NCBI GenBank assembly: GCA_002269645.1
Contig: NIVC01004439.1
Span: forward strand, 1-45,856
Length of the DNA stretch: 45,856 nucleotides
Origin: Macrostomum lignano
Lineage: Eukaryota
Direction of reading: 5' to 3'
Below the pieces are notes generated by a model. It saw only the letters and a list, made by a program, of their open reading frames with translations, was not told where the DNA came from and ran no database searches. A program made the position numbers and the translations under genes. Below are positions 4,802 to 34,334 of this stretch, piece by piece. The first letter of the stretch is position 1, and every line of letters starts with the position of its first letter.

Positions 4802-4811
4802 CAATATAAAA

Positions 4812-8800: not shown

Positions 8801-9844
8801 AAAAACGGTTGAAAATATTAGAGATAGAACCCAATTCCATTTAGAAAAGGATATTGATAAAGCAAAGAAATATTTCTCAAAACCTAACTTTAAAGACTTT
8901 ATAAAATTTGATGATAACTTTATGGGTATTCATATGAGAAATAAAACAACAAAATTTCTTAAACCAATATTTATTGGAATGGTTGTTTTAGATTTGCAAA
9001 GCTAGTAATGTATGAATACTATTATGATGTTATAAATAAAACATGGCCAGATAACTATCCAATATATGCAGACACCGACAGTTTGGTATTTAAGGTTGAA
9101 ACAGATGATCGGACAGCCGCGAACCAAAGGTTCGATGTCTATAAAGATATGGAAAAAATTAAGGATACATTGGATACCTCCGACTATCCGGATAACCATC
9201 CTTTAAAATCAGATCAAAATAAAAAAGTTGTACTTAAAATGAAAGATGAATTAAATAGCAAAATCATAACCGAGTTTATAGCAATAAGATCAAAATGCTA
9301 TGCATTTAAGGTTTTAGGACAGGAGGGAGAGGTAAAAAAAATAAAAGGGGTATCAAGAGCAGCAGTAAAAAAGATAACATTTGATGATTATAAAAACGTA
9401 CTTTTAGATTACCTTAATACAATTGAAAATTATCATGCTCCACAATATCGATTAAATTCAGATAAGCATCAGATGTTTGTCATCGAGACAGATAAAAAAA
9501 CATTAAGTCCATTTGATGATAAAAGATATTTAGATGATAAAATTAAAACATATCCATATGGTTTAAAAGAAGAGATAAAAAATATGATAAAAGATAAAAA
9601 ACAAAAAGAAGATATAATAAGTAAATATAATGAATACAAAGCGGCAATAAATAATTATTATTACGATTGTGATTGTGAATCCGAATGTGATTGTGAATAT
9701 AATACATTTCTAGAATATGAAAAAGATATAGATAATTATTATTCAACATTTCCAAAAGAACTTAAAAAATTAAATAAGGAAAAAGTCTTGAATAACTGGA
9801 AGAGATTAACAGAAAAATTACTTATCGGGTCTGTAAAAAACTAA
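5881..9844 (+). CDS. polB: Protein-primed family B DNA polymerase (~1320 aa; frameshifts near 7790 and 9000)
   Basis: ExoI IYADFE, ExoII FFHNGSGYD, YLDANNLYG, KLMNNAFYGK, YADTDS, SKCY and KGV motifs; EndoVII-like Zn insert CFMC...HCHLTGNYRGAACRSCN typical of Polinton PolB. Confidence 0.97.
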
Positions 9845-10177
9845 AGCATGTAATTGTTTGAGCAAATCATTAACTTCAATTTCATATATTATTGAGCACC
9901 AATTATCCTCACAGTCGGCAGGGTAACTTAAACAATCCTTTATTTTTTTCCTAAGTTTTTTTATTTTTCTAACCAATCTATCTATTTCAATTTCAATTAC
10001 TATTTCAGCATAAACAATATCTTGTCTTAAAAAACGTTTTCTTTTATCTATCTCATATCGGATGGGAAACATATCGTCCCCATACTCATGATATTTCTGA
10101 GATATAATTATATTTATTTTTTTATTAATATCATTAAGTTCACGCTCTTTAGTGATAAGGATTTTTATCGTATCCAT
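9818..10177 (-). CDS. 119-aa hypothetical helical protein
   Basis: ATG-initiated ORF, intact and identical in both copies. Confidence 0.55.
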   Translation of the reverse strand: MDTIKILITKERELNDINKKINIIISQKYHEYGDDMFPIRYEIDKRKRFLRQDIVYAEIVIEIEIDRLVRKIKKLRKKIKDCLSYPADCEDNWCSIIYEIEVNDLLKQLHALVFYRPDK

Positions 10178-10192
10178 TTTCTTATAAAAAAT

Positions 10193-10525
10193 TTAGTCTT
10201 CGTCGTCATCCTCCCAAACAGCCGCCAATTTTACAGTCCTATCACTCTTTTTATTATTTGTTTGTTTTAGTTTAAATTGCAATCCACCCTCGTTGCAGTA
10301 TTTCATAACAAACGCTTTAGGTTTATTAATAACTAAAACAGGAAAATTTTTAACATCATCTCCGCTTAGACATAAAATTTTTTGCCCATCTAATTGTAAA
10401 AATATTGATTGAAGCCCAATAAATTTAACCTGTCTCAAACATATAATATTATATTCTTTATTCTCCAACATATTGGGTGTGAGATAATTAATCACATTAG
10501 AATCGGTTTTGAACCAGCTCTCCAT
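10193..10525 (-). CDS. 110-aa hypothetical protein with acidic tail (possible OB-fold ssDNA-binding protein)
   Basis: Intact in both copies; beta-rich pattern and WEDDDED C-terminus. Confidence 0.55.
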   Translation of the reverse strand: MESWFKTDSNVINYLTPNMLENKEYNIICLRQVKFIGLQSIFLQLDGQKILCLSGDDVKNFPVLVINKPKAFVMKYCNEGGLQFKLKQTNNKKSDRTVKLAAVWEDDDED

Positions 10526-10551
10526 TTTTAATCTAAAAAAATAACAAAAAA

Positions 10552-11064
10552 ATGAAAGACATTTATGTTTGTAATAAATGTAATGTGACTATGCACAGAG
10601 GGCAAACAGCAAACGGAGATATATATCATATGTGTTATTCATGTTCTAAAATATATCAATTTGAAAAAACAAAAAAGATTGAAAACTCATATTACTATTT
10701 TAAAAACACAATTTTAAGAAATCTTACAAGAGACATTTCTGATCCAATTTTAATTCCCGGAAATAATGTTTATTTATATAATAACTTTTTCCATTTAAAT
10801 AAAGGAAAGGGATTAAGTTCGAAAGACTCTGAAAGGATTTTAATTTTAGTTGGATATTATTTCAATTTTCTTATTCGAGAGAATACAAAGTTTATAAGGA
10901 TAGGTAACATACCTAACGAAATGTTATTGAAAAAGTCATTGGAATTTTTATGTATTGATAAAAAATTTAAACCTAGGATCAGAAGAGAGTTACCACTTTG
11001 GGAAGAATATATAACATATGCATTAGAAAAACTAAACAACCTGAAGTTCTACCGCACTTCCTGA
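10552..11064 (+). CDS. 170-aa Zn-ribbon protein (possibly VLTF3-like)
   Basis: CNKC...CYSC at the N-terminus; present in both copies. Confidence 0.55.
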   Translation: MKDIYVCNKCNVTMHRGQTANGDIYHMCYSCSKIYQFEKTKKIENSYYYFKNTILRNLTRDISDPILIPGNNVYLYNNFFHLNKGKGLSSKDSERILILVGYYFNFLIRENTKFIRIGNIPNEMLLKKSLEFLCIDKKFKPRIRRELPLWEEYITYALEKLNNLKFYRTS

Positions 11065-11688
11065 CCGCGGGCTTTGTGCCCCAGTAGCAATAGTTTCAGG
11101 TTCGTAAATGCCTAATGTTTCTATCGGTGGAGCTTTGGGTTTATCGAGTCTCAACTCTTTTAATTCCATATCGGTAAAAGTTTCAACATCTAAAATTCTA
11201 TTTCTATCTTTTAAATATTTTTCATATAATTCAACCGCGGTTGATAATTCATGAATCGTTATCTCTCCGTCATCCAATATTTTTTGCACATATAAATATA
11301 ATTGATTTTTATATTGTTTTGCAACATCTCTTAAAGATTTATATTTTTCCTTTCTTTTTTTAAGATATAATTTAATTGCTAAAAGTATTGATAAGTTCCT
11401 GATCAATTCAAAACCTGATATTGAGCCAATTGAAATACCTAAAAATAATTGAGATAAATTAAGAGTTGGAATAGATTGTAAAATACCTAAAACGATTACA
11501 CATAACATTGATAAGCTTCCAAATCCAATATTGAAAAAGTCCATATTTCTTATATGGTTTGAAACTCTTCTTACTTTTTTAGCATATAAATCATAATCAT
11601 AGTTAATACGATCAACATTACTTAACATCTGACCTTTACGTTGGTTGAACCGGTCGCGTTCCCATTTATCTGCTTCAGATACCGACAT
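11032..11688 (-). CDS. 218-aa two-TM membrane protein of a type common in Polintons
   Basis: Two hydrophobic helices followed by a basic segment and KILDDGEITIHELSTAVELYEKY. Confidence 0.65.
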   Translation of the reverse strand: MSVSEADKWERDRFNQRKGQMLSNVDRINYDYDLYAKKVRRVSNHIRNMDFFNIGFGSLSMLCVIVLGILQSIPTLNLSQLFLGISIGSISGFELIRNLSILLAIKLYLKKRKEKYKSLRDVAKQYKNQLYLYVQKILDDGEITIHELSTAVELYEKYLKDRNRILDVETFTDMELKELRLDKPKAPPIETLGIYEPETIATGAQSPRSGSAVELQVV

Positions 11689-11998
11689 TCTCGTCTATTT
11701 TTAATAGCACCAAAATGAATTCCCCGCTCTTTGGGATTTGTCCCGAGCTCAATAGGTATTGTATTGGAGTTATTCTTTCTTTTTTCTCCCATTTAAATCC
11801 TATTTTCCAAAACTCTTGAAGTATAATATGATTTTTTAATAACTTAATTAATTCTTGAAGCTTCTTATTATCCTGAACATTTACAGTACTAAATAAAAAT
11901 TTGGTATGAGATTTGAATGTTTTTATATTTGATTCTTGTTTAGGAATAGGAATAATAACATTATTTTGCCGCATCGATGGAGTTCTACTAAAAGCCAT
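11675..11998 (-). CDS. 107-aa hypothetical protein (MAFSRTPS...)
   Basis: ATG at 11998; counterpart at 33993-34319. Confidence 0.5.
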   Translation of the reverse strand: MAFSRTPSMRQNNVIIPIPKQESNIKTFKSHTKFLFSTVNVQDNKKLQELIKLLKNHIILQEFWKIGFKWEKKERITPIQYLLSSGQIPKSGEFILVLLKIDENVGI

Positions 11999-12029
11999 TT
12001 TATATAGAAATATTTTATATATAAATATT

Positions 12030-14072
12030 TTATATTTGAGTAGGAGGTTTTTCCAAATAAGCAGTAGAGGGAAAAACATAACCAAACGACGTACTACCAC
12101 ATACAACTGCACCACGAATAAAATGTGCAGCATCCGCTCCACCAGTTCGAGCACCAAAACCCATAAGGGTTCCAGATTTATCTAAAGTTCCCCAAGTTCC
12201 ACTATCATATGTGAAAACGTTCTGTCCAATGAGGGTAAAAGAATCACCAGCAACATTGTATGACTGTAATCGGTACCAAACCCTTTGATTTAAAATATTA
12301 ACTTCAAATAAATGCCAATCGCCGTTATCAATATTAGCATAGGCTACAGTTTGATCCGCATCACTACTAACATCGTTACGAACCGTAGATCCGTCTGATT
12401 TTTTATTACTCCAAACAACTCCAAACCTATCATGCCACTCACTAGCAAAACTATCAATCCGGCGTCGGTTGATAATCCAGTCCAAATTCCGATGTTGGAC
12501 GTTGTGACAGTATGCATAAAACCAAACCGCATCTGCACCATCTCCTGTAGCATTAGCAACTCGGAAAAAGAAAGACGCAGATATATTTTGAAAATGTGTG
12601 AAATTGAATTGTAAAGCACCACTTACTCCAGAAGTTTCACGAGTAATTCTAGCGCCGTTTTGATAATCGATATAAGAAGCGTCACCAATTAAAGAACCGA
12701 CTGGATATATATCTCCGGCGGTTGTTGGATTTTGATATCCAGACCAATTGCAAATTACTGGTTCGAACAAGGCCGCATCAATAGCAGGTATTCCATCCAA
12801 TTTATTTTTATCGCTTCCAGACATTCTACCATTTGATGTTGGAGTAGCTAGCTGATCTACGTACGCTCGCGGAACTGCAGAAAGTATTTGAGTTGGCCAA
12901 TTAAGATCTTGAATTTCAACACGGTGTTCAAATAATTGTATTTGACGAACCTCGATAGGTTGTGTACCGGTACCACCAGTTGGGAAGAATACGCTATAAT
13001 ATTTCCAAAAATTAGTCGTTAAATTAGATAGAGCAAATGATGTTGCTTGAACTGGTGATCCCGACGTAGTTAATGTCGTCCATGAATCGGTAGCAACATT
13101 TTTTGCGCGAACCGACCACCCCGAGGGTATCTCAATTGTTTCACTGCCTGTAATTCTTAATTCAAATATTCTTCTATTATAACCTAAAAATTCAAATTGA
13201 ATTTCCATATTGGTTGTGGTTCCGGTATTTGGTGACCATTGTGTCGCAAGGCTTCCATCTCCAACTCGAAAAGCTGTGTTGCCATTTTCAGATGCTGTAA
13301 GAACAACATCAGGATTTGAAGTATTTGATGTAAGCGGCGTGGTAAAAATATCGGCGTCGGTTGCATTAGCTCGCTCGTTTACTTGGCCTAGAGTTATCGA
13401 GTCTGCGTTCTCTGTTCCAAATAATAAATTTGTTAATTTAAAATTATTCATATTAATATTACCACTACGAGTGGCAACTTGATTATCGACATAGTTCTTA
13501 TCAACCACTGAATCACTAGTTGTAATTGAAACATTTATAATTCGGTTGTTGCTCATATCTAGGTTTCCGGTTGCGGTGGTTTGAACATAACGTGAATCAG
13601 AATCAGTTCGAGAATAAGAATCAGTTACATCTCTTTTTAAATTTAATCCATTATCAACTTCGGTTTTGGTATAAGAATCGGCTACGTTCCGTTTCAAATT
13701 TAATGAATTATCAACTTCGGTTTTGGTATAAGAATCGGCTGTATTGCGTTTTAAATTTAATGAATTATCAACTTCGTTTTGGTATAAGAATCGGCTGTAT
13801 TGCGTTTTAAATTTAATGAATTATCAACTTCGGTTTTGGTATAGGAATCGGCTACGTTCCGTTTCAGATTTAGTGAATCATCTATTTGAGTTTTGGTATA
13901 GGAATCTGCAACATTTCTTTTTAAATTTAGTTTAGTATCAATTCACTTTTTTTATAACCTTCATCTCATTAATATATCGATTATCTCCAAATGTAACACT
14001 TATTCCACCAGATGTGCCACCACCACCACTACTTGTTGTTCCGTTCCATGAGGGTGTTCCAGAAAATAACAT
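12030..14072 (-). CDS. Fibre/receptor-binding-like protein: 14-aa repeats, discoidin (F5/8C)-like domain and ConA/L-lectin-like domain; N-terminus frameshifted
   Basis: KRNVADSYTKTEVDN repeats; ASENGNTAFRVGDGSLATQWSP...IQFEF; C-terminal SGALQFN...GDGADAVWFYAY. Confidence 0.7.
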
Positions 14073-14082
14073 TTTTTACTGT

Positions 14083-14529
14083 CTATTTTATAGAGTCTAA
14101 AATATCTGCTTTGCATGATACTAAATCTTCGGGTTTCCTTCGAGTTATTAATTTTATATAAAAAATACAACGCCGCTTGCCCGCAATAACTTTTATCAAA
14201 GTTTGAAATTGTTCGTGATGATCTCCACATAAACGATTTTTAGTATGATTAAATTTATCTTTTATTTCCTGTAACGGAGGAAGCGCGTATGAATCAAAAA
14301 AATAAACAAGTTTTGGTTTTGAATAAACTGCTGACCAATGAACACCATTTTCTTTTGTTGTTTCAATATTAACAATGAAAGATCCATATTGTGGTAAGTC
14401 TTTGATCTCATCTCGCATAACACATCTGAATGGTTTTATTTTTAACTGCCTCGCCCAATTTGTTAATTCGATATTGCTTGTTGTGTCCGTTCCATATCTT
14501 TGTTTAAAATCATCCCACGTCATGGTCAT
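14083..14529 (-). CDS. Adenain-type cysteine maturation protease (1-nt frameshift before the catalytic Cys)
   Basis: NGVHW (His), FFDSY (Asp); the adjacent frame continues with (Q)NFDKSYCGQAALYF (Gln/Cys). Confidence 0.9.
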   Translation of the reverse strand: MTMTWDDFKQRYGTDTTSNIELTNWARQLKIKPFRCVMRDEIKDLPQYGSFIVNIETTKENGVHWSAVYSKPKLVYFFDSYALPPLQEIKDKFNHTKNRLCGDHHEQFQTLIKVIAGKRRCIFYIKLITRRKPEDLVSCKADILDSIK

Positions 14530-14530
14530 T

Positions 14531-14730
14531 TTATGTTCCTGAAAAACTCTTGGTTTTAGTTAGTTTCGTAGGTGTGGGTTTTAACAATTCCTTTCTTATT
14601 TTATCAGCTTGTAACTGCCTTAATTTTGCTAGTTCTAGTTCGTAATTATCTTCAGCTTTTTTAACTTTTTCTGATTGTTTTTTTATTAAATTATTATTAT
14701 TATTTTACGCCATGTTGTTCGATTACCCAT
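14531..14730 (-). CDS. Small coiled-coil protein (~65 aa)
   Basis: NLIKKQSEKVKKAEDNYELELAKLRQLQADKIRKELL present in both copies between penton and protease. Confidence 0.45.
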
Positions 14731-14733
14731 TTA

Positions 14734-15513
14734 CTAAACCTGTTTTATACGTAAAATTATTGTTATTGACTGCCCACCAAAACTTATTAATCTATCGCTT
14801 TCATCTACAATCCTAATATAAATTGATTGAACATTATATTGATTTAATGGGTAATATATTGGGGTTTGAGGTGATACAATCATTTTCTCTCCAATTGGAA
14901 CAGCAAGAAATGGGATTGAATAAATAATTCCACGTTGAACCAAAACTCCGTTATCTGTTATATAACCACCGTTTGAAATGTCGGTTGTTATATTAATTGT
15001 ATTACTCCACCCTCATATTTCCACTGTATCACCGGTGCTTGATGTGGTAACTATTCGGGAATTAAATCCAAGTATGGTTCTGAGTGAATTTGCAATTGTG
15101 AAATCAACCTGATATCCGGATCCTAGTGATAGTGTGAATCTGCCAGACGGTAAATCAACACCTATAACAATTGCTCCTGCTACCCAATCACCATTAGTTG
15201 TTAATTCTCCTTCTATATAAGCATTCAAATCAGTATAGCTATACGCTCCTGGGTTAACGCTAAATGTTGTCCAATTGGCTCCGGAATCTTTAGAATATCT
15301 AAATTGATTATTTGTTGCATTAATTAATTGAGGCATGTTGAAAACCGAAAATAGTATTAAACCTATTTGATAACTTAGGCTTTGATCAAGTTGTAATGGA
15401 TCGCGCAATTGAATCCGTTGCTCGCTGGTTGTCATTATAAACTGTAATGTTGTACTAAATTTTGAATTAGTTCGATCTACCAATTGTTTTATAGTATTTA
15501 AATTTGTAGTCAT
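14734..15513 (-). CDS. Minor capsid protein (penton, single jelly roll); frameshifted
   Basis: LRDPLQLD...YQIGL...NNQFRY...PGAYSYTDL and C-terminal IIYSIP...PIYYPL...IRIVDESDRLISFGGQSITIILRIK pattern. Confidence 0.85.
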
Positions 15514-15528
15514 TTTTATAGTGGGAAA

Positions 15529-16314
15529 TTAATTCTCTTCCTCTCCTTCTTTTATCAAATTTGTTAAAATTCTATGTTTCCTTTCTAACCTCGGATTGAT
15601 ATAAATATGTTTGTATTGGCTATCATCCCAAATTTTTTTACACATACTTTTAAATGGTTTTGCATCCAATCCGGGATTAAATCTAGCGTGAATATTTTGT
15701 AATCATAATTATCTAAATCAAACATTACACAACAACTTGCATTCTTTTTTATAATCGATTCTAATTCTCTAAAGGATTGAGTAAGATAAAAAGCTCCAAT
15801 TCCATCTCCTCTACCACTAACAAAAATTTCCTTTTGCAATTCTTGATCACCGTCATTAATACAATCATCAAAAATAATTAGTGTTTTATCATGTTTTGGA
15901 ATTTGATCATAGGCTAATCGGGTTGATACTCTAACAGTTGGGGCGATCGGACGAAGTCCGCGACCCTTCGGGGCGATCGGTGATGTTTTCTGGCTGTTGT
16001 GCCATTGTTTTACATAAATCCTCAATGTCTGCTAGATTAAATCGCGGTTCGTCATCATCCTCATATTGCTCATATGCTCTTAACATTCTAAACAAGACAT
16101 CTTTTTTTAATTTGTTTTTTAATCCATGTTTAAGAAATTCATAATATTTTATTCTAGGTTTATTAGTATAAATTATTAAATTATTATAGTCTAACATTCC
16201 ATCTGTTGTTAATAAATCGTAAACAAAGTGTGTTTTTCCTTTACCTGATCCTCCGATTACTAAACAAAGAAAAGGATCATTTGGAAATATTTTATTGTGT
16301 TTTGCCTTTACCAT
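15529..16314 (-). CDS. A32/FtsK-like genome packaging ATPase; frameshifted
   Basis: Walker A GGSGKGKT, Walker B LIIFDD, SGRG and YLTQS motifs. Confidence 0.92.
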
Positions 16315-16329
16315 TTTTAAAGAAATAAT

Positions 16330-17829
16330 TTAAATAGGCGCGACGGTCGGAGACCTGCATTTTACAGCGGCGTCCCGAACAATCGTGCCATCAGCTTTAG
16401 CAATTGACATATATTCCTCTAGAAACAATACGTGGGCGTCAAGTGCCTGATTACCGGTTTTATTAATCTCTAACATATAATTAAGTCCAATATTGGCTAC
16501 GTTTTCTTTCTGTGCCGTTAGATCATAAACAACCACTGGATGAATGTTTAGAAACTCTGTGGGTGTGTACTGAGGGACGGCATACGCTTCATTTTTGCAT
16601 AATCTTGATAATATTTTATAAAATCATTAACATTATTATTTGCTATATTTAAATTTAGGGGTCTTTAACCGGATAATATTGATCATCAACCTGCAGGCGG
16701 ATATTCTGAACATTAAACTCGTTAATAGCTGCAGCCGCATTGTCTGTTGCGGTGGCTGCTTGTTCTGCTATGGCACCGGATTGAAGCCAATATAAATCCC
16801 CATTTGCTCTTTTACTCCTTCTATTTGTTATCTTAAACCAAACAAAAATATATCTCACCCGACGTTTTGATGTCAGTATTTGCCACTGGAATGAATCCTG
16901 GTTATTATTAATGGTTCGCATAAAATGTCGACGATTCAAATAAAATATTTCCTGATCATGCGTTAACTGATTATCGATGTGTTTTAAAAGTGGGGCTGTT
17001 ACCTCAATAGTTGGTACGACTAATTGAATTGAATCTATACGAACTGCTATATCGGTTGAAATTGAGGTTCCATAAAGTATCCTAGGCTGATATCCACCAG
17101 ATATTTGCAACTGTATCCCAAATTTTAATCCTTTCCATACCCGATTTGGTGAGAAAAACCCAAATAGTGGAAAGATTGAAAAGTCCTGCTCATATGCTGT
17201 TGCTGTGGTTAAAACCGCGACTGGGAATTTATTCTGACGATCTATAAAACCAGTATTAATATCTTTTGTATTAGTCATAGTGGTTACAACTGGAACTATG
17301 TTTGTATTAAGGTAAACAATTAGCGCTGCAGTATCTGCACCGGCTGCGTTTTGTACATTAGGGAAAACTACTGCTTGCCGTTACCTTTATCCGGCATCCA
17401 CCCAACATTATCACCAACTTGTTTTGATAAATAAGTATAATTTAAATGTTTCAAAACTCCATTAATCTCTGCGGGGTTTGATGATGTCTCAACCTCAGCA
17501 CCATTAACAGTTAGTTGAGCTTGGGAAAAACATTTATAAAACCAATCATTTTCTATTATTATTCCGGATCGATCTGCGATATCTCCGGCTGCAAGAGCAG
17601 TTCCATCATTTCTAGTATACAACCATCTAACGCGGAAAAACGCATTTTTCATATCCAATATAGTGTTGGTTGCGCCGATGTCAAAAGTTACCGTTCCAGT
17701 AGTAAAGTTATTTGAATTATCACTTGTTGGTAGGGTATAATTTAAATCTCTTGCTCTGACCTCATTAATATACTGTCGGTGCTTTTTGAAATGAAATTTA
17801 TCACTCCACATAGTTTTTGTTTCAGCCAT
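16330..17829 (-). CDS. Major capsid protein (double jelly roll, hexon-like); frameshifted
   Basis: FDIG...LDMKNAFFRVR, FSQAQLTVNGAEVE, PLFGFF, RYIFVWF, NIRLQVDDQYYP and VVVYDLTAQKE; ~500 aa once frames are joined. Confidence 0.88.
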
Positions 17830-17863
17830 TTTTTTAAGTTAAAAAAGTTTTTTATGTTAAAAA

Positions 17864-18528
17864 ATGAGTCAATTTATGGACGTTGATGGAGAGTTAGCGA
17901 TTTATAAAGAGAAGCAAAGATATTCTGATTTTGTTAGAAATTTACAAAAAAGAAAGTTAGGAATACAATTAGCGGGTGAAAGATTTGCTGCTCCTTTTGT
18001 TAATCCTATTACTGGGAAAATTAGTGAACTAGAAAAAACAGATAAAGATCTTCTGGAAAAAATTGCTAAAAATACGAGCCAAAAGAGGATGAAATTTTGG
18101 ATGAGCCGCCTGCTTATGATGTTGATCAAGCACAATTGAGAATTGCAGAGATTAGACGTGCAGAGCGGGGCGATCGGGAACAATATCCAAGAGTACCAGC
18201 TAGTATTGCTGCGACAGATTTAGGTAATAATAATTATCGAATTGGTGGAGTTGATAAAAATCGAGATGAACTATATAGAGAATTGGGTGGAGCATATAAT
18301 ATTGTTATGAACCCTAGGGTAAAATTTAACCCTGATTTATATACTAGGGATGAATTAATAAGTGCTAGAATTTTTTATGATGAGTTAGGAGGAGCTGTTA
18401 AAAATACCAGCTTGTATAAAAGGATTGTTAATTCTATAAATAACAAACCAGCTGTTGGAGAAGGATTTAAAACACCGCGAAAACTTGTTTTAGCTGCTGC
18501 GAAAGCTGCTGGACATACTGGAGTTTAA
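17864..18528 (+). CDS. ~220-aa conserved Polinton protein, function unknown; frameshifted
   Basis: Two overlapping ORFs that join into the copy-2 ORF at 40225; C-terminal VGEGF protease-like site. Confidence 0.6.
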
Positions 18529-18555
18529 TTAATTGTTAAATTTATTTTTTATAAA

Positions 18556-19122
18556 ATGGAAACTAATAAGATTTGTACTAAGTGTAAACAAGAAAAACCG
18601 ATGACGAAAGAATTTTATTTTTGGAGAAATGATTCAAAAAAATTTAGAAATGATTGTCGATCTTGTCATAATACCTCATCTGCTATTTGGATAAAAAACA
18701 ATAAAGATAAATGGAATGAATATAGAAAAAATAAGTATCACACTGATGATAATTACAAACATATTGTTTTAATTAGAAATAGAATAAATTGGGCGTTGAA
18801 AAATTTTAATGACAAGGACTATATCTCATATCTTGGTTGCACAAAAGAATTCTTTTTTGATTGGTTAAATTTCACAAGAAATTATTATGTATCAAAAGAT
18901 TATACTGGAAAGTTAGATATTGATCATTTCATCCCGCTTCTTCATTTAGTTACAAAGACGATGATCAGATTAAAAAGTCTGAAAATTGGAGAAATAAAAG
19001 ATACTTAACTAGCGTAGATAATAACTATAAAAAAGTTAAACAACCAACATTGAAGAGTTTGCAAAACAATTGGTGCTTCATGTATTTTTAAGGCTATTAA
19101 AAATGAACCAAATAGTGTTTGA
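18556..19122 (+). CDS. HNH endonuclease with N-terminal Zn finger (giant-virus type); frameshifted
   Basis: CTKC...CRSC; YLGCTKEFF; LDIDHFIP...HWTNKRYLTSVDNNYK when the frames of both copies are combined. Confidence 0.8.
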
Positions 19123-19228
19123 AGGAGGATTTTTAGATGTTCAAAAAGGATTAACAAGCTTACCACCAATCTTTACTACTGGTAAATATACAGGGGAACT
19201 ACACCTACCATCAATGAACTTCACAGGT
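19103..19228 (+). CDS. PLA2 exon 1 (42 aa)
   Basis: MNQIVFEGGFLDVQKGL...GELHLPSMNFTG, ending at the U of the intron 5' splice site. Confidence 0.85.
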
Positions 19229-19530
19229 TAACCCGTGGCCTGAGTGAGGAAGGCAATGTCCTTGCTAGTCACTATTTGTGGCGACATCTCCAAATTGCGT
19301 GAAACCCGTCATACAGCTTCAAGTACCACTTCAATTGAGAAATCTTTTGAAGGAACAGAGGTAACTCCTCTTCCCAAAGGTAAAAAGCTTGAAGACACGG
19401 TGGCAATGCGCAGCCAAGCTCCTAAGTATTTTAAATATAAGGAGAAGGTTCAGAGAGCAGACGGAGATGGGCGGTAATTATCGCCGCTTAAGGTGTGCTC
19501 CAGCCTCTTCGAAAGATTGAGGGTAAACTA
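19229..19530 (+). ncRNA. Group I self-splicing intron, IC1-like (302 nt)
   Basis: P AAATTGCGTGAAA, Q AATGCGCAGCCAAG, R GTTCAGAGAGCAG and S TAAGGTGTGCTCC; P3 CATCTCC/GGAGATG; P7 G-A(bulge)-GAGCA/TGCTCC; P5abc; P1 with a U-G pair. Removing it restores NFTG|PGT. Confidence 0.93.
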
Positions 19531-19853
19531 CCGGCACTCGCTTAGATTTGAGATTAAATCCTGACAATACTCCAAAATCTGATTCAATTCCAATAAATGG
19601 GATTGATTGGTTAGCATACTATCACGACTTAGCATATAGAGATGCTGACAAGAACCCGCCCGAGGAAGCATTAAGATTAAAACATGAAGCCGATCAAAAA
19701 ATGATTCAAGGATTAGATAACTTGCAGGGATTATCGGTAGGTCAAAAATTAACTAGGTGGATGGTTAAAAAATTCTTGCAGTCTAAAGTTAAATTTGGTT
19801 TAGGAATTAATTACAACAACATGGAAATAATTGTGTCGAATGTTTGTTATTAA
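19531..19853 (+). CDS. PLA2 exon 2 (parvovirus VP1u-type phospholipase A2)
   Basis: PGTRLDLRL...PINGIDWLAYYHDLAY...EADQKM: HD catalytic dyad and downstream D. Confidence 0.88.
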
Positions 19854-20666
19854 GTGGTAGTGGGCTAAGTTCTGATAAGGCTAAGGTTCTTCATAAAGAA
19901 TATCGAAAACCTAAATTTTATAGAAAAATCATGAACTTCAAAAAGAATGAAATTTGGTATGCTGATTTAATGTCGATGCCGAACGAAAGAGGATATAAAT
20001 ATATCTTAACCATATTAGATGGTTTTACTCGATACGCGTGGGCTGTTCCTTTAAATCCAAAAAGGAGAGGATGTTGCTGCTGCTTTTAGAAGTCTTGGAG
20101 AAAAAAGCGAACGTTTGTGTGTTGACGAAGGAAAAGAATTTTACAATCCTCATATGTATAAATTGTATCATTTTGAAAAAGGACAAGAAAGGAAAAAGGA
20201 CGCGAATGGGGAGTATATTAATAAAATTTATTCTATTTATGGAGAGAGTAAAAACGCATTAATAGAAAGATTTAATCGAACTTTAGGTAAGAAATTATGG
20301 TTTCAGTTTAGTCTTAATGGTAACCAAAAGTGGGTAAAAATATTACCAGACGTAGTGAAAGATTATAACAATTCATATCATTCAGCTATAAAGATGACTC
20401 CTCAACAAGCTTATAACAATCCTGAAAAGTTAAAGTTACTTTTGGAAAATTTGAAAAAAAAAAAAAATTTTAAGGTTGGTGATTCTGTTTATATCTATAA
20501 ATGGAAAGATAAGTTTGAAAAGGAAGAAAAGGATATTGGAAATAAGTGAGAAATTTACCATCAGTAAAGTTTTAAATACCAATCCTACAACCTATATAAT
20601 TGCTGATAAGGACGGTGAAGAAATATTGGGTTCTTTTATGAGAACCAGATAATGTCTGCGAACTAA
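19844..20666 (+). CDS. Retroviral-type (rve, DDE) integrase; frameshifted; probably C-terminal to PLA2
   Basis: VLHKEYRK...IWYADL...YKYILTILDGFTRYAWAVPL, VDEGKEF, NALIERFNRTL, YNNSYHSAIKMTP. Confidence 0.93.
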
Positions 20667-20676
20667 GTTCAAACAG

Positions 20677-20901
20677 TTACTTAAGACAACATGGTAGTAA
20701 ATTTTTTATAACAAACAAAAACAATATTATTACTATAATTGTTACTAATATTATTATTGACATTTGTTCAACTGTTATCAAACTTAAATTTTCATTAAGT
20801 TCATTAATTGGAACATTTCCGATGTAGGAATAGTTTACCTTCATTTTTTTATATATATTTTTCACAATAAATGTCGTTTCTGTTATAGAATAATAGTTCA
20901 T
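20677..20901 (-). CDS. 74-aa single-TM protein
   Basis: Hydrophobic IIILVTIIVIILFLFVI; identical in both copies. Confidence 0.55.
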   Translation of the reverse strand: MNYYSITETTFIVKNIYKKMKVNYSYIGNVPINELNENLSLITVEQMSIIILVTIIVIILFLFVIKNLLPCCLK

Positions 20902-20917
20902 TTTTTAAATATTTTTT

Positions 20918-21232
20918 TCACATAAAAATTTCACTTTCATTCTCTGAATCACTGGTTTCATATGAACTATTTGTTGATTCGGAATCTGTTGATCTAACCT
21001 CCCAATCATCCGAATTTAAATAATCTCCAAGTTGAAATATTAACTCACCCTCTTGTTCTAAATCATACATCTCATCTAGCTCTAATGGATAAAGTTTTAG
21101 GTCGTGCTTGTCGTCATATTTTAAATAAACTTCATCAATTATTCCATTCAAAATATGTTGTTTTATTATCTCTGCATTTTTAGCAACAGTCTCAAAAGTA
21201 TCACTAACAGAAAAGGTGTAAACTCGGGTCAT
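20918..21232 (-). CDS. 104-aa acidic hypothetical protein
   Basis: ATG next to the right TIR; identical in both copies. Confidence 0.55.
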   Translation of the reverse strand: MTRVYTFSVSDTFETVAKNAEIIKQHILNGIIDEVYLKYDDKHDLKLYPLELDEMYDLEQEGELIFQLGDYLNSDDWEVRSTDSESTNSSYETSDSENESEIFM

Positions 21233-21249
21233 TTTTAGTAACAGAAAAA

Positions 21250-21556
21250 GACCCTTCGCGCCTGCGGCGCGGGCAAGGGGTTATAGAGTAGTAGTATAGA
21301 AAAAGACGCTTCTAGATCAGACCTTATTTTAATGGCCGTTTGTAAGGTCTTAAGAGGGGGGACGCGAGGGGGGTGTTGGGGAGTGTTTGGAAGTTTGGGA
21401 AATGATTTTTATTGTTAGGGGTGATTATGGGTGATTAGATGTGTTAAGGGTGTTTAGATGTGTTTTTTTATTTACCCCCCGTGTCCCCCCTCTAGACCCT
21501 TAAAACGGTAATTAAAAAAGTGCTCTGGGTCTAGAAGCGTCTTTTTCTATACTACT
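21250..21556 (-). repeat. Right TIR of copy 1 (307 bp)
   Basis: Reverse complement of 3914-4221; internal terminal 27-mer at 21290-21316. Confidence 0.95.
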
Positions 21557-21785: not shown

Positions 21786-23943
21786 ATCCGTACATACACA
21801 TTTTTTACCAGCAGGATAACAGCTTTTATTTAGCTGACATCACTCCCGCTCACAAAAAATGATTATTTGGCTATTCCTCGGAATTTTTATATTCCTGAAT
21901 ACAGCTGAATACAGCTACAGCAATACATCCCGAAGCTATAGGTGTCTGTATTTTTCTTTGGGAAGAGCTTGGCTAGCTGCATCATCAAAGCTAGTGTTCC
22001 GTAAAAGGCAAACATTCTTTTGGATTGCATAATTTACATGAAAAGACTCTATAAATACATTTACACAATTGCACATTGCAAGACTTTAATTCTTTTACTA
22101 ATCTATTATGACAAAAATTTTAGGAAGTTTTGCTAAAATATCAGTATTTACTGATTCTTGAGTGTTTGTTTCATTAACAAATGAAATATATATTACATCT
22201 TATATTGTTTGGGGCAAATGATTATTATCTAATTTGTTTAAACTGTCAAAATTTGAAACGAAAATTCTAATTTTCGCTTTCGCATAGGTTTGTGTAAAAT
22301 TGTCCTTTTATCTTTCTTTTCAAACTTAGGCTTTAGTTAGATAGGCCTTTTAGCAATTATTTGTTGCCGATTTTATTTCATATAGTAGTTGATATACCTT
22401 GTCGCTCAACAATTGGCTGACTATAGTTATTGTAATTGACATTTTATATGGCCCAGTAGGCCAGCCTACCCACTATGCCCTATAGGCATAGGCCTGCCTT
22501 CTTGGCTTCTTTAACTAGATCTAGAAGTTTTTTAGAAGGCTAATATTATAGTCATATGGGCTTAGTATATTACTTATACTGACTCAGAATATAAATATAG
22601 ATAAAATTTTAAAACTGACTTTTTTGAGTTGTGACTTAAGAATTATTGTCTTGATCTGCATAATGGTTAGTATATATATAGGAAAAATCATCTGGCCTTC
22701 CTTATCTAACCTTGACCTTGTTTATAGTTTTGCCTTATAGCTTCTGTTTTTAATCTTCAGTTTCAGATTTAATGTCATTGTAAAAAGTGCAAGAAATGCT
22801 TCAGAGTAAAAATACTTTGTTTTTTTACTTTTAGACAGCTGGACTAGAATTATCCAGGCTATGTTAATAATTTTGATTGCAAATTTTTTACTTTTATTAT
22901 TGATAATAGATTGGTAGTAATAATATTGTTTTATTAAGACTTAGGATATTTGTTGATTAGGCCCAATTATAATTATAATCATTCTAATAAATTGTCTTTA
23001 GCTTATTAGAAATATAATATAGGCCTAAGCCTAGTTAGTTTTTAATTATAAGCCTAGAAGTATTTAGACTTAAAATTTTATTTTTAGTTTATAGAATATT
23101 TTTATTTTTAGTATATTTGATGATTTAGATTTTAAGATCAGAAAATTAAGCAATTTATAATAAAAAAATATTTAAGTATATTTATAAACTATGTTATATT
23201 ATTGGTCTATTAAGGACAAGGCCTAAATTAAATTTTTATTCAAAAGCAAAGTAATATTTTTGTTTGGAATATATTTAGATTTCAATACTTTCTATATTTT
23301 ATAATATCTCTATAAAAATATTTAAAGACTTATTTATTACATTCAAAAAAAGACTGCTATTAGTCTCAAAATAGTAATTATATTATAAAGTGCATTTACT
23401 TAGCATTTCTTTAGATTAAGAACTATTACCTGGGTAAAATTTACATGGTTTAATTTTTTGTGAAATATAATTATTCATATTCACTTAAATTTCCATTTTA
23501 GCTACCATCTACAAATGTCATCATCTATATTTAAAAAACCTGCTGAAAACAATGAAGATTTGTTAGCTATATAATTGTCCATTTTTTATGCTGCTTTTTC
23601 TTTGTCTTGCATTTTTTCTGCCTGTGATCATTTGAATAATTTGTTAAAATGCAACTTTTATGTGTATCAATACTTTGAATACAATATAACAGTACACTTT
23701 ACAATTATTTTGAAGCTCCCTATTGCTTGTTGAATTTTTTCTTTAACAAGTGAAATTCCGTATGATGGAATTATTTTTTGTTCTTTGTAACTTTTGCAAG
23801 TCCATAGTATGAGTATCAACATTTTGCCAAGTGCTCTATAGATAAATTATATATTTAATAGGTTCACACTTGGAACCATATACTTTCTCGTAAATAAGTC
23901 ACCTAAATCACTTTGAAATGTGATAAGTATTTATAGCTCTTGT

Positions 23944-24560
23944 GAACATTGCATACCTGGAAGGTACTTGAAAAGTGATTTAAGAAAACATTGCATACTT
24001 GGAAAGTACTTGAGAAGTGACTTGAGAAAACATTGCATACTTGGAAAGTACTAGAGAAGTGACTGGAGAAAACATTGCATACTTGGAAAGTACTTGAGAA
24101 GTGACTGGAGAAAACATTGCATACTTGGAAAGTACTTGAGAAGTGATTGGAGAAAACATTGCATACTTGGAAAATACTTGAGAAGTGACTGGAGAAAACA
24201 TTACATACTTGGAAAGTACTTGAGAAGTGACTGGAGAAAACATTGCATACTTGGAAAGTACTTAAGAAGTGACTGGAGAAAACATTGCAAACTTGGAAAG
24301 TACTTGAGAAGTGACTAGAGAAAACATTGCATACTTGGAAAGTACTTGAGAAGTGACTGGAGAAAACATTACATACTTGGAAAGTACTTGAGAAGTGACT
24401 GGAGAAAACATTGCATACTTGGAAAGTACTTAAGAAGTGACTGGAGAAAACATTGCAAACTTGGAAAGTACTTGAGAAGTGACTAGAGAAAACATTGCAT
24501 ACTTGGAAAGTACTTGAGAAGTGACTGGAGAAAACATTGCATACTTGATACTTGGAAAGT
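23944..24560. repeat. 42-bp minisatellite, ~14 copies
   Basis: Unit GAAAACATTGCATACTTGGAAAGTACTTGAGAAGTGACTGGA. Confidence 0.95.
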
Positions 24561-25033
24561 ACTTATTGAGTGTACTTGGAAAACTTAGAAAGTACTTAGG
24601 CGGTACTTGCCACGAGGTTGCATTGTTGACTTACCAAGTACTTAGCAAGTTTGGTTTGTTTTTTTTTCTCGGGTAGGGACATTGATATCAATGCCGGGCC
24701 AATATTTTCTCATGTACTCGCTGCATTCAAGTTTGCATCGGTACTTGGATTTGTAATTAGGCTCGTGCGCTTTGTAATAAGAACCCGGAGAGACAACTGG
24801 AAACATTTTTTTTATTGAGAATTTAATTTTTTTCAAAGGGTGAGGACCCTGCGCTGATGATTTAAAGTCTTTGGGATCTGGTTTCGCTTTGCAAATTGAA
24901 TGTGGGGAGAAGAATGCAGATTATTTTCTGATTGTTTCGAACATGCTATAGATGGATGTCAGTGGATTATGTCTGTGTCAGTGAACATAACAGGTGTCCA
25001 CAGTGAGCATAACAGGTATCAGTGGACACCTGC

Positions 25034-26244: not shown

Positions 26245-26542
26245 AGTAGTATAGAAAAAGACGCTTCTAGACCCAGAGCACTTTTTTAATGCCCGTTTTA
26301 AGGGTCTAGAGGGGGGACACGGGGGGTAAATAAAAAAACACATCTAAACACCATTAATACATCTAATCACCCATAATCACCCCTAACAATAAAAATCACT
26401 TCCAAACACTCCCCAACACCCCCCTCGCGTCCCCCCTCTTAAGACCTTACAAACGGCCATTAAAATAAGGTCTGATCTAGAAGCGTCTTTTTCTATACTA
26501 CTACTCTATAACCCCTTGCCCGCGCCGCAGGCGCGAAGGGTC
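26245..26542 (+). repeat. Left TIR of copy 2 (298 bp)
   Basis: Lacks one 10-bp internal unit relative to copy 1; internal inverted terminus at 26476-26502. Confidence 0.95.
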
Positions 26543-26723
26543 GGAAAGAATAGAAGCTATTTATAGTCAGCTCACCTACCCACCCAACATTCCATTTAGA
26601 CCAGATTTTAGACCAAACAAAACTAGACTATCGTTTTGGTTTTCGTTTTCAAAAATTTGGTCTAAAATCTGGTCTAAATGGAATGCAGACAATCTTTTTC
26701 TGTTACTAAAAATAGAACAAAAA

Positions 26724-27122
26724 ATGACACACGTTACACATATGCAAAATCTGAATGAATTGCAGGTAGGAGACCCAGTTGAATACCGAGGTGAGGGGCT
26801 TTTTGATGTGGTTGGAACAGCAGCAAATTTTGTTAAAGACAATATGGGGCTTATAGGGCAAGCTGGCTCTGCAGCAGGCTCTATAACAAATGCTGTAAAA
26901 GGAGGAATTGAAGCAGCTAGAGCGGCAGAAGAACTAAAGAAATTGAGAGATTTTAACGACACCCTCTCACAAATAAATGCAATAAAAGATTTAAAGCTGG
27001 CACAAGCCGCACAACCAACAGAAACCCCCACGAAAAGCGCGCCAATAAGTAATAAAGATATTCAGGATTTTAATAAAATGTTAAATACTATTAAAGGTGG
27101 AAAAGGATTAAAGAAATTTTAA
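26724..27122 (+). CDS. 132-aa putative virion core/minor protein (copy 2)
   Basis: Identical to 4403-4801. Confidence 0.65.
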   Translation: MTHVTHMQNLNELQVGDPVEYRGEGLFDVVGTAANFVKDNMGLIGQAGSAAGSITNAVKGGIEAARAAEELKKLRDFNDTLSQINAIKDLKLAQAAQPTETPTKSAPISNKDIQDFNKMLNTIKGGKGLKKF

Positions 27123-27132
27123 CAATATAAAA

Positions 27133-28119
27133 ATGGACACAGATAACGACCGCTTATATTTTATAGGAGAAATTGTAGATACTTTAGATCTGGATGATAA
27201 TAAACATAGCCACACAATGTTAAAAAGATTGGATCGATTAGGTAAAAAGTTTGACTACGACATCGATACATTTAAACTCGCAGCAAAATATGCACAAGAA
27301 GGAAGGCCAATATCCTTTAAGAATCGCGGCAGAAATTATAGGTTGACAGACTCCGATGTGAAATTTTTAATGGAGACTCACACTAAAAAGGACGGCGGAT
27401 TACTACCCATTCTACCGCTTCTTTTAGGACTTGGCGCAGCTGGAGCAGTCGGTTTAGCCGGAAAAAGAATTCATGATAATGTAAAACAGCTAGGAGAGTT
27501 AAGAGCGAAACAGGGGGGAATCTTGCCCCTTGCAGCTTTGCTCCCAATAATTTTTGCAGGAATTGGAGCAGCTGGAGGAGTTGCTGGCGGAGCAGCTGGA
27601 ATTGCAAAAGCAGTAAATGACAAAAAAGCTGCGGACGAAAAAGCTAAAAGAGAGGCCGAATTTCAAAGACAGCAAATAACGCAGGACGCACAATTTAAAC
27701 AGAAACTTATTGATACCATTAATAGTAGTTCAGCAACAGCAGAGCAAAAAAGAAATGCAGAAGCTAGGTTAGCAGCCGGAAAAGGTTTACTCTTGCAAGG
27801 AACAAATCACGGGAATGGTTTGGTACTAAAAGGAACAACCCAAGGAAGTGGAGTTGTCGCAGATAAACTACATGAATTTGGCCAAACTTTAGAAAAAACG
27901 GGTGAGAAAGCTAAAGGATTTTTTGACAATATTGGATCCAATTTTAGACCAGCTGTTCAGAAAATTTTTAATAAATTAGGAAAAGATTTTAACATCATTG
28001 AAAAACACGACGGAAGCGGATTATATCTCGAAATGAGACCAAAAGCAGGTTCAGGAATTTTCTTAAATTCAAACGTTATGGGCAATGGATTGCTATTACC
28101 AAAAGCAGATCTCGAATAG
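27133..28119 (+). CDS. pX-like core/membrane protein, intact, 328 aa
   Basis: Two pX-like hydrophobic segments and six G[KNS]G[LIV] motifs. Confidence 0.72.
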   Translation: MDTDNDRLYFIGEIVDTLDLDDNKHSHTMLKRLDRLGKKFDYDIDTFKLAAKYAQEGRPISFKNRGRNYRLTDSDVKFLMETHTKKDGGLLPILPLLLGLGAAGAVGLAGKRIHDNVKQLGELRAKQGGILPLAALLPIIFAGIGAAGGVAGGAAGIAKAVNDKKAADEKAKREAEFQRQQITQDAQFKQKLIDTINSSSATAEQKRNAEARLAAGKGLLLQGTNHGNGLVLKGTTQGSGVVADKLHEFGQTLEKTGEKAKGFFDNIGSNFRPAVQKIFNKLGKDFNIIEKHDGSGLYLEMRPKAGSGIFLNSNVMGNGLLLPKADLE

Positions 28120-28203
28120 GCTCCTGGGGGGAGGGTCTGGACACCAAAAACACAAAATTAAAAAATCAATAATTCAAACATTATATAAATTTTATTCTAT
28201 AAA

Positions 28204-31200
28204 ATGGAAGCAATTTTAGCTCAAATCGACAACCCTGAACTTAGAGCGCAATTAATAGCTCAAATCGATGCACAACGAATTGCCGATAGGGCTGAAATAG
28301 AAGCAAGAATTAGGGCAGAAAATGAGATACGTTTAGAAAGACAATTAAATGATATTAATAACCCCCAACCACAAGGACAAAATGGAGCTGAAGTAATATA
28401 TATAGATATAGATATAAATACAAATTATAAAGAATATTTTAAACAAATGAAAGATAAATTAAAGACCATATTAAACAATTATACTATAAGGCCAAATAAC
28501 AAACGACAGCCAATTAAGTATAAAATAGAAGTTGAAACAGAATTTAAAAAACCAAATATTCTTAATGCAAATTCAGAAATTGAAGTAATAAATAACTTTT
28601 CACAAGAATCATATAAAACATTATTATCAATGGGAAATTACAACAATCAATTCGATCAAATAGAAGCTGAGTTTGATGAATGGATAGATAAGATGACAGA
28701 AAACGGATCTGGGTTTATATTTGTTTCATGCAATTCAGCAACAGTAAAGATTGCACCCATAGAAATTCTTAAAGGACGATCACATATGAAGCTCAAATTT
28801 AAATCACCTATGATTATAAATCCAGACAATAAAGATAATAAATGTTTATTATGGTGTTTATTAATTCATAAATATCACAATCAAGTAGAATCACACATTA
28901 ATAAAATATATAATTATAGACAATATGAGGATGAAATAATAATGAAAAACATATCATACCCAGTAGCAATAGATGATATATATAAGATTGAAAAAATGAA
29001 TGGTTTAAATATTAATGTTTTACAATTGAAGAACCAAAAGATCTAGAAGAAATTCAAGGTCGATCCAGAATGGTATAAGAAAAGGTGTTATCTTGTTAAG
29101 CCAGCAACTGATATAACAGCACCAGATCAAATCGATCTTTTGTACATGCAGCGCGAAAATGAAACACATTATATATACATAAAAGATATTAGTTCTTTTT
29201 TAAGAGAAAATAGAAATAGATATCCACTATGTAGAAATTGTTTTACATTTAAAAAGGATGAAACAGCTCTTAAAAACCACCAACGATTTTGTTTAGATCA
29301 CAAATTTACTAATGCTATAATGCCAGCATCTGAAGATGCAACCCTAAAGTTCCAACAACATTATATGGCAGTTAAAAAACCAATAGTAATATATGCTGAT
29401 TTTGAAGCAACAAATGTTCCCTTAAAAGAATCACAGACGGTATCTGATGACGGTGAATGCACAAAAAAATTGGCACAACAGTTTCCGAATAGTTATTGTA
29501 TATATGTACACTCTGTAGCTGATCATATATTTAAATCAAGGATGATTACTTACCACGGTAATGATGCAGCTAAGCACATGGCAGAATCATTAGTAAATGT
29601 ATTTGAATATATTCAAAATCAATATGATAAATTATCAAAAAATATTAATATGACAAATAAGGATAGAGACAATTATAAAAATGCAACAAATTGTTTTATG
29701 TGCAAAAGACATTTAAGTAAGAATAATAAGATACGAGAACATTGTCATCTAACAGGAAATTATCGAGGGGCAGCATGTAGATCATGTAATGCAAAAGAAG
29801 GAAAAGGATGTAAGGAAATACCAGTATTTTTTCATAATGGTTCCGGATATGATTTTCATTTCTTAGTTCGAGAATTGCTTCATTTAGGAAAGGATGAATA
29901 TGAAATAAATATATTACCTAAAACATCAGAAAATTACATATCAATAACATATGGTAAGAAATACTCCCATCTAGTTTTTCTAGATTCCTTGAGATTCTTA
30001 TCAACATCTTTAGCAAATGTTGTTTCATCATTAGTTCCAAAACCATGGGATTTAGAAATAGTAAAGAAAAACTTTCCAATCTTATTGAATCGTTTCAAAA
30101 AAGAAAAACTATCCGAGGAAGAACTAATGCTATTAACTCGTAAGGGCATCTATCCATATGAATATGTAACATCTGAAGACGTATTTTTTCATACCGAATT
30201 ACCCCCAATTGAAAAGTTTTATTCAACATTATCACAAACAAACATAAGTGAATCGGATTATGAACACGCTCAAAAAGTATGGAAATACTTTAATTGTAAA
30301 ACATTTAAAGATTATCATAATCTATATCTTAAAGCAGATGTTCTCCTATTAGCTGATGCATTTGAAAACTTTAGGAATCATACATATGAGAATTTTAAAA
30401 TTGATCCCGCATATTGTTTCAGTGCACCGGGATTAACATGGGCTTGTGGTTTGAAACATACAGATGTTAAGATTGATTTACTAACTGATCATGATATGTT
30501 GTTAATGATTGAGAGAGGAATTCGCGGTGGATTCTCGGGTGTACTAGGAGATAGATATACTAAAGTAAATAATAAATATCTACCAAATTATAATAAAAAA
30601 GAAAAATCATCATATGTATTATATCTAGATGCAAACAATTTATACGGTGGTTGTATGAAACAAAAATTACCAATAGCTGATTTCCAATGGGAAGATGACC
30701 CCGATTATTACAAAAATATTCCCGAAGGAAGGGGCTGTATCGTAGAAGTGGATTTGCAATATACTCGGGAAGCAAAAGCAAAAACATATAAATATCCTTT
30801 AGCTCCAGAGCATTGTTCAGTTAATGAAGATGATTTATCACAAACACAAAAAGATTATCTTAAAGTAGATAATGCAAAACATCTAGCAACAAAAAAATTA
30901 ATATTAAATTTACATGATAAGAAAAACTATGTAGTGCATTATAAGCTTCTACAATTTTATGAAAAGCAGGGATTAAAAGTGTCTAAAGTACATCGAACAA
31001 TATCGTTTATTGAGGAAGATTGGTTAGCTAAATATATTGACTTTAATTCAAATCAGAGACAGATGTCAAAAACAAATTTTGAGAAAGATTATTGGAAATT
31101 AATGAATAATGCTTTTTATGGAAAAACGGTTGAAAATATTAGAGATAGAACCCAATTCCATTTAGAAAAGGATATTGATAAAGCAAAGAAATATTTCTCA

Positions 31201-32499: not shown

Positions 32500-32514
32500 T
32501 TTCTTATAAAAAAT

Positions 32515-32847: not shown

Positions 32848-32873
32848 TTTTAATCTAAAAAAATAACAAAAAA

Positions 32874-34319: not shown

Positions 34320-34334
34320 TTTATATAGAAATAT

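Follow-up and report, generated by a model that had tools for sequence, protein, structure and literature searches.

Do the PLA2 and the integrase of a Polinton belong to one protein, and does a group I intron decide whether this protein can be made? The question is raised by the window analyzed here, the whole contig C4439 with a length of 45,856 nucleotides. Two Polinton copies, each about 17.6 kb long, lie in it; in both, a PLA2 domain is split by an intron and followed by an rve integrase, with broken reading frames at the junction. The initial annotation had seen in this arrangement a virion-packaged polyprotein that is separated by the maturation protease and gated by self-splicing. The following features were assigned (strand in brackets):

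3914-21556: Polinton copy 1, between terminal inverted repeats; the flanking 6-mers differ
26245-43951: Polinton copy 2, with terminal inverted repeats and a 6-bp target-site duplication
18529-19005 (+): free-standing, presumably HNH-like ORF upstream of exon 1; no Pfam nuclease match
19103-19228 (+): PLA2-integrase exon 1, copy 1; ATG at 19103; stops within the Ca-binding loop (NFTG); its boundary follows from the intronless copies
19229-19530 (+): group I intron, copy 1, presumably IC1-type; P1 U.G, P3, P4, P7 and P9.0 intact; final base A
19531-19808 (+): remaining PLA2 domain, copy 1; YHDLAY at 19620; first Gly-x-Gly-hydrophobic motif at its end (19797-19808); frame break at about 19531
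19809-19867 (+): linker, copy 1; HxxxCxxC; second motif GSGL at 19856-19867; frame break at about 19817
19868-20666 (+): rve integrase, copy 1; LHK at 19889; Asp motifs at 19955-19966 and 20121-20132; Glu motif at 20262-20273; stop at 20664-20666; several breaks
41467-41623 (+): exon 1, copy 2; short palindromic insertion behind the ATG
41624-41920 (+): group I intron, copy 2; final base A
41921-43062 (+): exon 2, copy 2 (PLA2, linker, integrase); frame break at about 42250, more downstream
14003-14559 (-): adenain-like (C5) cysteine protease of copy 1, spread over two frames; that of copy 2 at 36432-36857
27112-28116 (+): pX-like putative core protein (Adeno_PX, E 0.01); copy 1 equivalent from 4791
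26481-27119 (+): putative core protein (left ORF) with two Gly-x-Gly-hydrophobic motifs; copy 1 equivalent at 4160-4801
39018-40199 and 3' part of 37183-38646: candidate major capsid and penton ORFs, assigned by position only

The Elements and Their Genomic Setting

A 6-bp target-site duplication, as found around copy 2, is a feature of Polinton/Maverick elements. The remaining genes are assigned with varying strength. The A32-like ATPase scored under the cut-off (Pox_A32, E 8.6e-4) with a P-loop present, and the motifs of a putative protein-primed PolB were picked out by eye from what we take to be the typical ones. The sole Pfam match in the PolB region was Endonuclease_7, which places an Endonuclease VII domain within this region (29047-31326). 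The ORF at 18529-19005 is presumably HNH-like by its motif. Between copies of the element, HNH-like and PD-(D/E)xK-like ORFs swap in this slot upstream of the PLA2-integrase gene (window 18529-19005; L009, L010, L015).

The genome searched comprises 764 Mb. Wnt genes are present (86 matches), and we therefore regard the host as an animal. Many of the Wnt matches occur at two to four near-identical places in the same genome, which indicates duplicated genome segments, and the copy counts given below are inflated for this reason. Several other observations were made on the way. A fibre-like gene with 57-nt repeats (12033-13820 and 34338-36380, minus strand) differs strongly between the window copies and contains an F5/8 type C domain in copy 2. 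Between and beside the elements, the host sequence contains tandem arrays with units of 42 nt and 29 nt (23819-24658 and 44993-45391). Palindromic inserts of about 30 nt, often frame-preserving, occur behind the start codon or in the intron loop (window 41470-41500; L005, L010, L013, L022, L023, L029) and are possibly a tiny mobile hairpin element.

PLA2 and Integrase Share One Reading Frame

In the window, the frame of copy 2 reads PLA2 through ...KFGLGINYNQHGNNCVECLLLSGGG and then meets a stop, and the frame of copy 1 reads NCVECLLLSGSGLSSDKAKVLHKEYRK straight into the integrase, with the breaks at the junction located at about 42250 and 19817, respectively. The readings and breaks are thus as initially described, but the proposal that the two copies combine into one continuous frame, each lacking a single base, needs to be amended: each copy has many more breaks and the continuity rests on unaltered copies elsewhere. 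In detail, 24 indel differences separate the two copies over 18900-20700, and further breaks of copy 1 lie, for example, near 19531, 20053-20064, 20114, 20542 and 20634. Compared with the nearest other family copy over 1.45 kb, copy 1 is shorter at 12 gaps and longer at none, and copy 2 is shorter at 11 gaps and longer at one. Eight other copies were counted as the shorter side in the same way: six have 0-2 gaps to a non-window neighbour, one has a single gap to window copy 2 and one has nine. Because of this deletion-only pattern of the window copies, read errors in the contig are the likely cause of their frame breaks, with private decay of the two copies as the alternative; contigs of independent runs deviate from copy 1 by one-letter gaps at several of the break sites.

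A DNA search for this family (family 1) yielded 196 candidates, of which 40 were scored and 30 fetched. The frame from KFG to LHK is open in 28 of 30 family loci, and both exceptions are the window copies. From PLA2 to the end of the integrase it is open in 38 of 47 distinct family-1 places, a set that was partly picked by protein score. A second family carries the same fusion and the same intron site, with integrase pieces 44-77% identical to that of the window (its linker was taken from the ORF translation). With the intronless outside relative P0001 as query, the genome yielded 117 scored matches; the seven of full length are intronless copies (three of family 1, four of family 2) that contain a single frame from Met to the integrase end. 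The claim of one PLA2-integrase ORF is therefore confirmed by the 28 loci in frame together with these seven intact copies. A third family has a stand-alone PLA2X and a separate, divergently oriented integrase (judged from 7 of 30 loci).

The initial annotation had also suggested a look for PLA2-rve fusions in related elements, and these are frequent. Searches with the PLA2 region outside the genome returned 7 and 18 proteins, most of them with both Pfam domains. Among all proteins fetched from databases there are 50 PLA2-integrase fusions. Of 54 metagenome loci, 29 have the fusion and another four have both domains in separate frames. No match was obtained when viral_contigs was searched with P0001; an alignment search of viral_contigs gave three loci, in which PLA2 is not fused to an integrase. 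The virophage-like contigs L137 and L138 have a PLA2 that ends a 630-aa ORF, also without integrase fusion. In a quick tree, families 1 and 2 fall into a clade of 21 rows (SH-aLRT 96), 20 of which are fused and the remaining one is a fragment. Other fusions are scattered in this tree, some of them next to unfused sisters, and it is compatible with one origin of the fusions as well as with several.

The values of pN/pS range from 0.05 to 0.11 across PLA2, linker and integrase. At about 0.09, the linker is under purifying selection. The predicted fold of an intronless copy (84-row alignment) reached a pLDDT of 88.5 with values below 50 only at residues 1-11 and 135-151, leaving a linker of low confidence (135-151) between two well-predicted modules. 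Its fold matches are integrases (the best being MELD virus integrase, foamy virus and mavirus) and a viral PLA2-like protein. Both Pfam and the fold matches identify an rve integrase with DDE. The PLA2 profile PF08398 is weak on exon 2 and over the cut-off in the intronless P0001; HDxxY in 46 of 48 fusions and the Gly-x-Gly Ca loop are the features of a PLA2X. Pfam found no Chromo match in the fusion of this family, which other relatives do have, and no Adeno_PX match; the PLA2 reads on into the integrase rather than ending in a pX-like tail.

In line with the earlier statement that the integrase has no start of its own, the window copies lack a Met between the last PLA2 helix and LHK. Across 40 fusions, 11 have a Met 22-45 amino acids ahead of the first Asp, and judged from these positions internal starts are possible in some of them. 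It is hardly conceivable that the fusion is an artefact or a chance read-through of adjacent genes. This idea could draw on the broken junction of the window copies and on the scattered database fusions beside unfused sisters, but it is at odds with the 28 open loci, the two families, the fused clade, the constrained linker and the 29 fused metagenome loci, and at the DNA level it is refuted for this family.

A Group I Intron Interrupts the Calcium-Binding Loop

In a local scan, the sequence at 19219-19521 matched RF00028 with 57 bits (gathering threshold 50, E 1.4e-13). Rfam scans of the whole window and of six loci did not report the intron. No intron was reported either in 15 metagenome loci, a weak result as larger inputs missed the known intron; the relatives outside the genome are intronless. 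We take the intron to belong to subgroup IC1. Pairing holds for P1 including its U.G, for P3, P4 and P7 in the 36 family-1 and the 24 family-2 loci. For the family-1 type-A loci the U.G in P1 is present in 35 of 36, and P4 and P7 are paired in all 36. Between the families, three pairs in P7 and one in P4 are compensated. The intronless copies place the insertion site in the Ca loop, where it separates a Gly from a Pro codon. The last intron base, which is set by P9.0, is A in both window copies. Altogether, A was counted in 60 copies and G in 20, and family 2 has G in 22 of 24 loci read.

Exon 1 of copy 1 ends at 19228 and TAA follows directly at 19229. A stop is reached 0-8 codons past the 5' splice site in all 38 measurable intron copies (six more were not measurable), which bears out the earlier observation that the unspliced intron blocks the frame. 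Most family-1 introns have a length of 303 nt and are in frame with exon 2. A near-open frame through the intron core (window 19229-19530; L035-L062) is the tail of the family-2 nuclease ORF, and in the relatives P0002 and P0004 the 3' end of the intron contains an in-frame Met. In 6 of 47 places, this insertion site is occupied by a second intron core. In these copies (L004, L009, L015, L017, L020, L116) the peripheral parts are shared with the window intron and the catalytic core is different; of two successive G candidates for the 3' splice site, only the first preserves the frame. Spliceosomal removal was rejected by hand from the boundaries, since the frame would be lost.

Contigs of four runs, whose type we guessed to be RNA, contain no joint across the window intron, and one of them spans 19107-20276 with the intron retained; this negative result carries no information on expression. 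Family-2 joints in two runs were discarded as evidence for splicing because their letters are those of the intronless DNA allele. A third family-2 joint (one contig, depth 3.3) has an exon 1 end like that of the intron-bearing allele and matches no listed exon-2 start. Judged from its final base, the A-ending intron of the window type may splice poorly or not at all. For comparison, the coral mitochondrial intron ND5-717, which also lacks the terminal G, splices accurately with lower efficiency according to the accessible text of PMC6545197.

Mobility of the intron is suggested by its surroundings. Most copies have an intron in the PLA2-integrase gene, and intronless alleles coexist with them in both families. 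The family-2 intron contains a 237-aa Eco47II-like ORF (E 2.3e-5), and some family-1 copies have a free-standing homologue ahead of exon 1. From the Pfam name we presume that this nuclease cuts GGNCC. This word is absent from both window elements (0 and 0 vs 20.7 and 22.2 expected) and not depleted in the flanks (25 vs 17.6 expected), and the joined Gly and Pro codons create it in intronless copies. In the same elements (3914-21556, 26245-43951) the counts of CCNGG, CTNAG and CANTG are reduced by a factor of about two to three, and GCNGC is about threefold in excess. The best reading of the intron is that of an optional, mobile passenger which arrived later at the Gly-Pro codons and on which the fusion does not depend. 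Its spread and the shielding of its site are likely assisted by a GGNCC-type nuclease.

Splicing as a designed gate, the strong reading of the initial proposal, is not supported by these data: both families have intronless alleles, relatives are intronless, a nuclease ORF lies in or beside the intron, and the window intron has no terminal G. Entry and integration would be gated only in the sense that the frame is blocked, which is a side effect. One could still argue that splicing was selected as a gate and that a ribozyme weakened by the terminal A throttles entry and integration together, in agreement with the blocked frame of every measurable copy, the excess of A-ending over G-ending copies and the coral precedent for accurate but less efficient splicing. 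As two different intron cores occupy one site, intronless alleles persist in both families, and the nuclease ORF together with the loss of GGNCC points to selfish spread, we consider this improbable. Somewhat more room has to be given to the possibility, which we nevertheless doubt, that the A-ending copies including those of the window are unable to splice and are non-autonomous, with the precursor supplied by a helper or the integrase made from an internal start in exon 2. The terminal G is missing where P9.0 fixes its position, intronless and G-ending alleles of the helper type exist, and there are in-frame Met codons in the PLA2 part. On the other hand, P7 is fully paired in 36 of 36 copies, the frame is open in 20 of 24 A-ending places, and splicing without terminal G has the precedent described in the available part of PMC6545197. 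That pN/pS is low for the A-ending copies can be a legacy of recombination.

Gly-x-Gly Motifs as Candidate Cleavage Sites

The conserved word of the linker is Gly-x-Gly followed by a hydrophobic residue. Of 50 PLA2 fusions, 38 have it 25-58 amino acids ahead of the first catalytic Asp. The same interval lacks it in all 29 stand-alone integrases that are long enough to cover it and in all 70 shorter ones, and integrases with other long N-termini have it in 3 of 11 cases, all three being protease-integrase fusions. Five same-cluster duplicates, 14 fragments and one row without core were left out of this tally, and the resulting Fisher p of 2e-12 is overstated, as the fusions are related. Counted over 23 fusions, there are 29 motifs in 1037 linker residues vs 3 in 7131 residues elsewhere. 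The strict motif occurs in 15 of 29 metagenome fusions, and several of the others have GG by eye. P0059, one of the 11 integrases with long N-terminus, is a PLA2 fusion not caught by the profile and is also without motif.

The first motif is at the same time the conserved tail of stand-alone PLA2X, so that a fusion with a single motif may have kept it as part of the PLA2X structure and not for cleavage. A second motif is located at a fixed distance of 33-34 amino acids before the first Asp in the clade of the two families and, after a long insert, in P0007. Cleavage at both motifs of the window family would free a 20-residue Cys-bearing peptide, which may resemble the protease-activating peptide of adenovirus pVI. 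Adenain cuts at (M/I/L)xGG↓X or (M/I/L)xGX↓G. Both families fit this strict consensus, as do 8 of 50 fusions overall, at a background of 0.05 per 25 amino acids; the virophage-type GG↓X or GX↓G is present in 40 of 50 fusions, yet also in 8 of 29 stand-alone integrases. The linker had been described as matching an adenain site. A Gly motif of the protease type and an adenain-like protease in the element were indeed found, but this family has two candidate sites, they are of the mavirus type GX↓G, and few of the fusions follow the strict consensus.

Atlas matches with scores of 0.94-0.95 connect the protease to Peptidase_C5 clusters with recognition below threshold, and no sequence match to it was obtained in Pfam or PDB. 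Its gene is broken in both window copies; the His, Asp, Gln and Cys motifs are in a single frame in 7 of 10 stretches fetched, two of which did not reach the gene. Further candidate substrates carry the same motif: the pX-like ORF has six (1.3 expected) and the left putative core ORF two (0.17 expected), whereas polymerase, capsid, ATPase, protease and integrase together have two in 2467 amino acids, one of them in PolB. Small ORFs adjoining metagenome fusions repeat it 3-4 times. In P0052, P0066 and P0137 an adenain-like protease with His, Asp and Cys motifs (weak Peptidase_C5 in two of three) is fused to the integrase via Gly-x-Gly, possibly as a self-cleaving precursor. Their motif is support that does not depend on PLA2, with two of the three being sisters.

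From this pattern we infer, as a reasonably probable model, that PLA2 and integrase would be made as one precursor after removal of the intron, which is required for the full protein. The precursor would be packaged into the particle through its PLA2 part and cut at the Gly-x-Gly sites by the cysteine protease of the element during maturation. PLA2 would then aid membrane escape, by analogy to the entry function described in the parts of PMC4642659 and PMC8502044 at hand, and integration of the genome that has entered would be carried out by the released integrase. Cleavage and virion packaging, which the initial annotation had already proposed, share the probability of this model. It is also imaginable, if unlikely, that the two domains function without being separated and that the Gly motif is only the structural tail of PLA2X plus a flexible hinge. 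The motif of stand-alone PLA2X, the lack of the strict pattern in 12 of 50 database and 14 of 29 metagenome fusions and the very short linkers of some relatives would fit such a protein. The fixed position of the second motif in the clade and in P0007, its occurrence ahead of the integrase in three of three protease-integrase fusions, none of them with PLA2, and its repetition in putative core proteins speak against it. A wider version of the precursor model is a long shot: in a broad Polinton group the integrase would, as in retroviruses, be the C-terminal cargo of a virion protein, either the phospholipase or in some members the protease, and freed at Gly-x-Gly, and here a slowed A-ending ribozyme would set the amount of precursor while it shields the one GGNCC that cannot be lost.

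Comparison With Known Systems

Polintons and adintoviruses, of which the group 2 Maverick-Polintons (10.64898/2026.06.19.733378) are among the closest systems compared, share with our element a parvovirus-like PLA2 that is thought to be a virion entry factor, an rve integrase, a C5 protease and terminal inverted repeats. In the accessible portions of these papers PLA2X and integrase are separate genes, in contrast to the one ORF found here (PMC8502044, PMC4642659, PMC5803895, 10.64898/2026.06.19.733378). The adintovirus integrase has a C-terminal chromodomain in the available text of PMC11071296, unlike the fusion described here, and the pX-like match of our element lies on another ORF and not in the fusion. 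Mavirus, the integrase of which is among the closest non-retroviral fold matches, has both integrase and a hydrolase in the virion, the hydrolase being cut near GK↓G, and its related protease cleaves GG↓X and GX↓G. It differs in that MV02 and MV13 are separate genes, the lipase has another fold and, in the sections of the paper at hand, cleavage of the integrase from a precursor is not reported (PMC6048507).

As in our element, the group I introns of protist Polinton-like viruses have an RF00028 fold, a length of about 300 nt, a position in a virus protein gene and an optional nuclease ORF, going by the accessible text of PMC12220804. The coral ND5-717 intron shares the missing terminal G with that of the window (PMC6545197, available part). 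The intron described here differs from these by its animal nuclear host, the insertion in a PLA2 Ca loop and the restriction-enzyme-like nuclease. A review of 2013 lists nuclear introns of this group from microbial rRNA genes only, at least in its accessible text (PMC3679873). In the literature searched, as far as its accessible text goes, no group I intron in an animal Polinton was found.

The carrier of the integrase is a phospholipase in our element and a protease in three relatives, and the DNA virus in question presumably has a module of the double jelly-roll type; this sets the fusion apart from precursors of the retroviral Pol or adenovirus type. In retroviral Pol, the viral protease frees the integrase from a packaged precursor, and adenovirus core proteins undergo maturation cuts at Gly motifs. 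The literature searched contained no paper on the delivery of the Polinton integrase or on the substrates of the protease. Likewise, no PLA2-integrase or protease-integrase precursor of a Polinton was found in its accessible text, though such fusions may already be visible in Repbase or in the supplementary genome maps of PMC8502044 and PMC11071296.

Furthermore, the natural A-ending, G-ending and intronless alleles, which exist side by side, are a comparison set for a catalytic RNA that lies within a protein gene in animal chromosomes. A PLA2-integrase precursor with a marked cut site would be the first concrete substrate for the Polinton protease. Such a precursor would tie integration to particle entry and would thereby speak for a true virus cycle over transposition within one cell.
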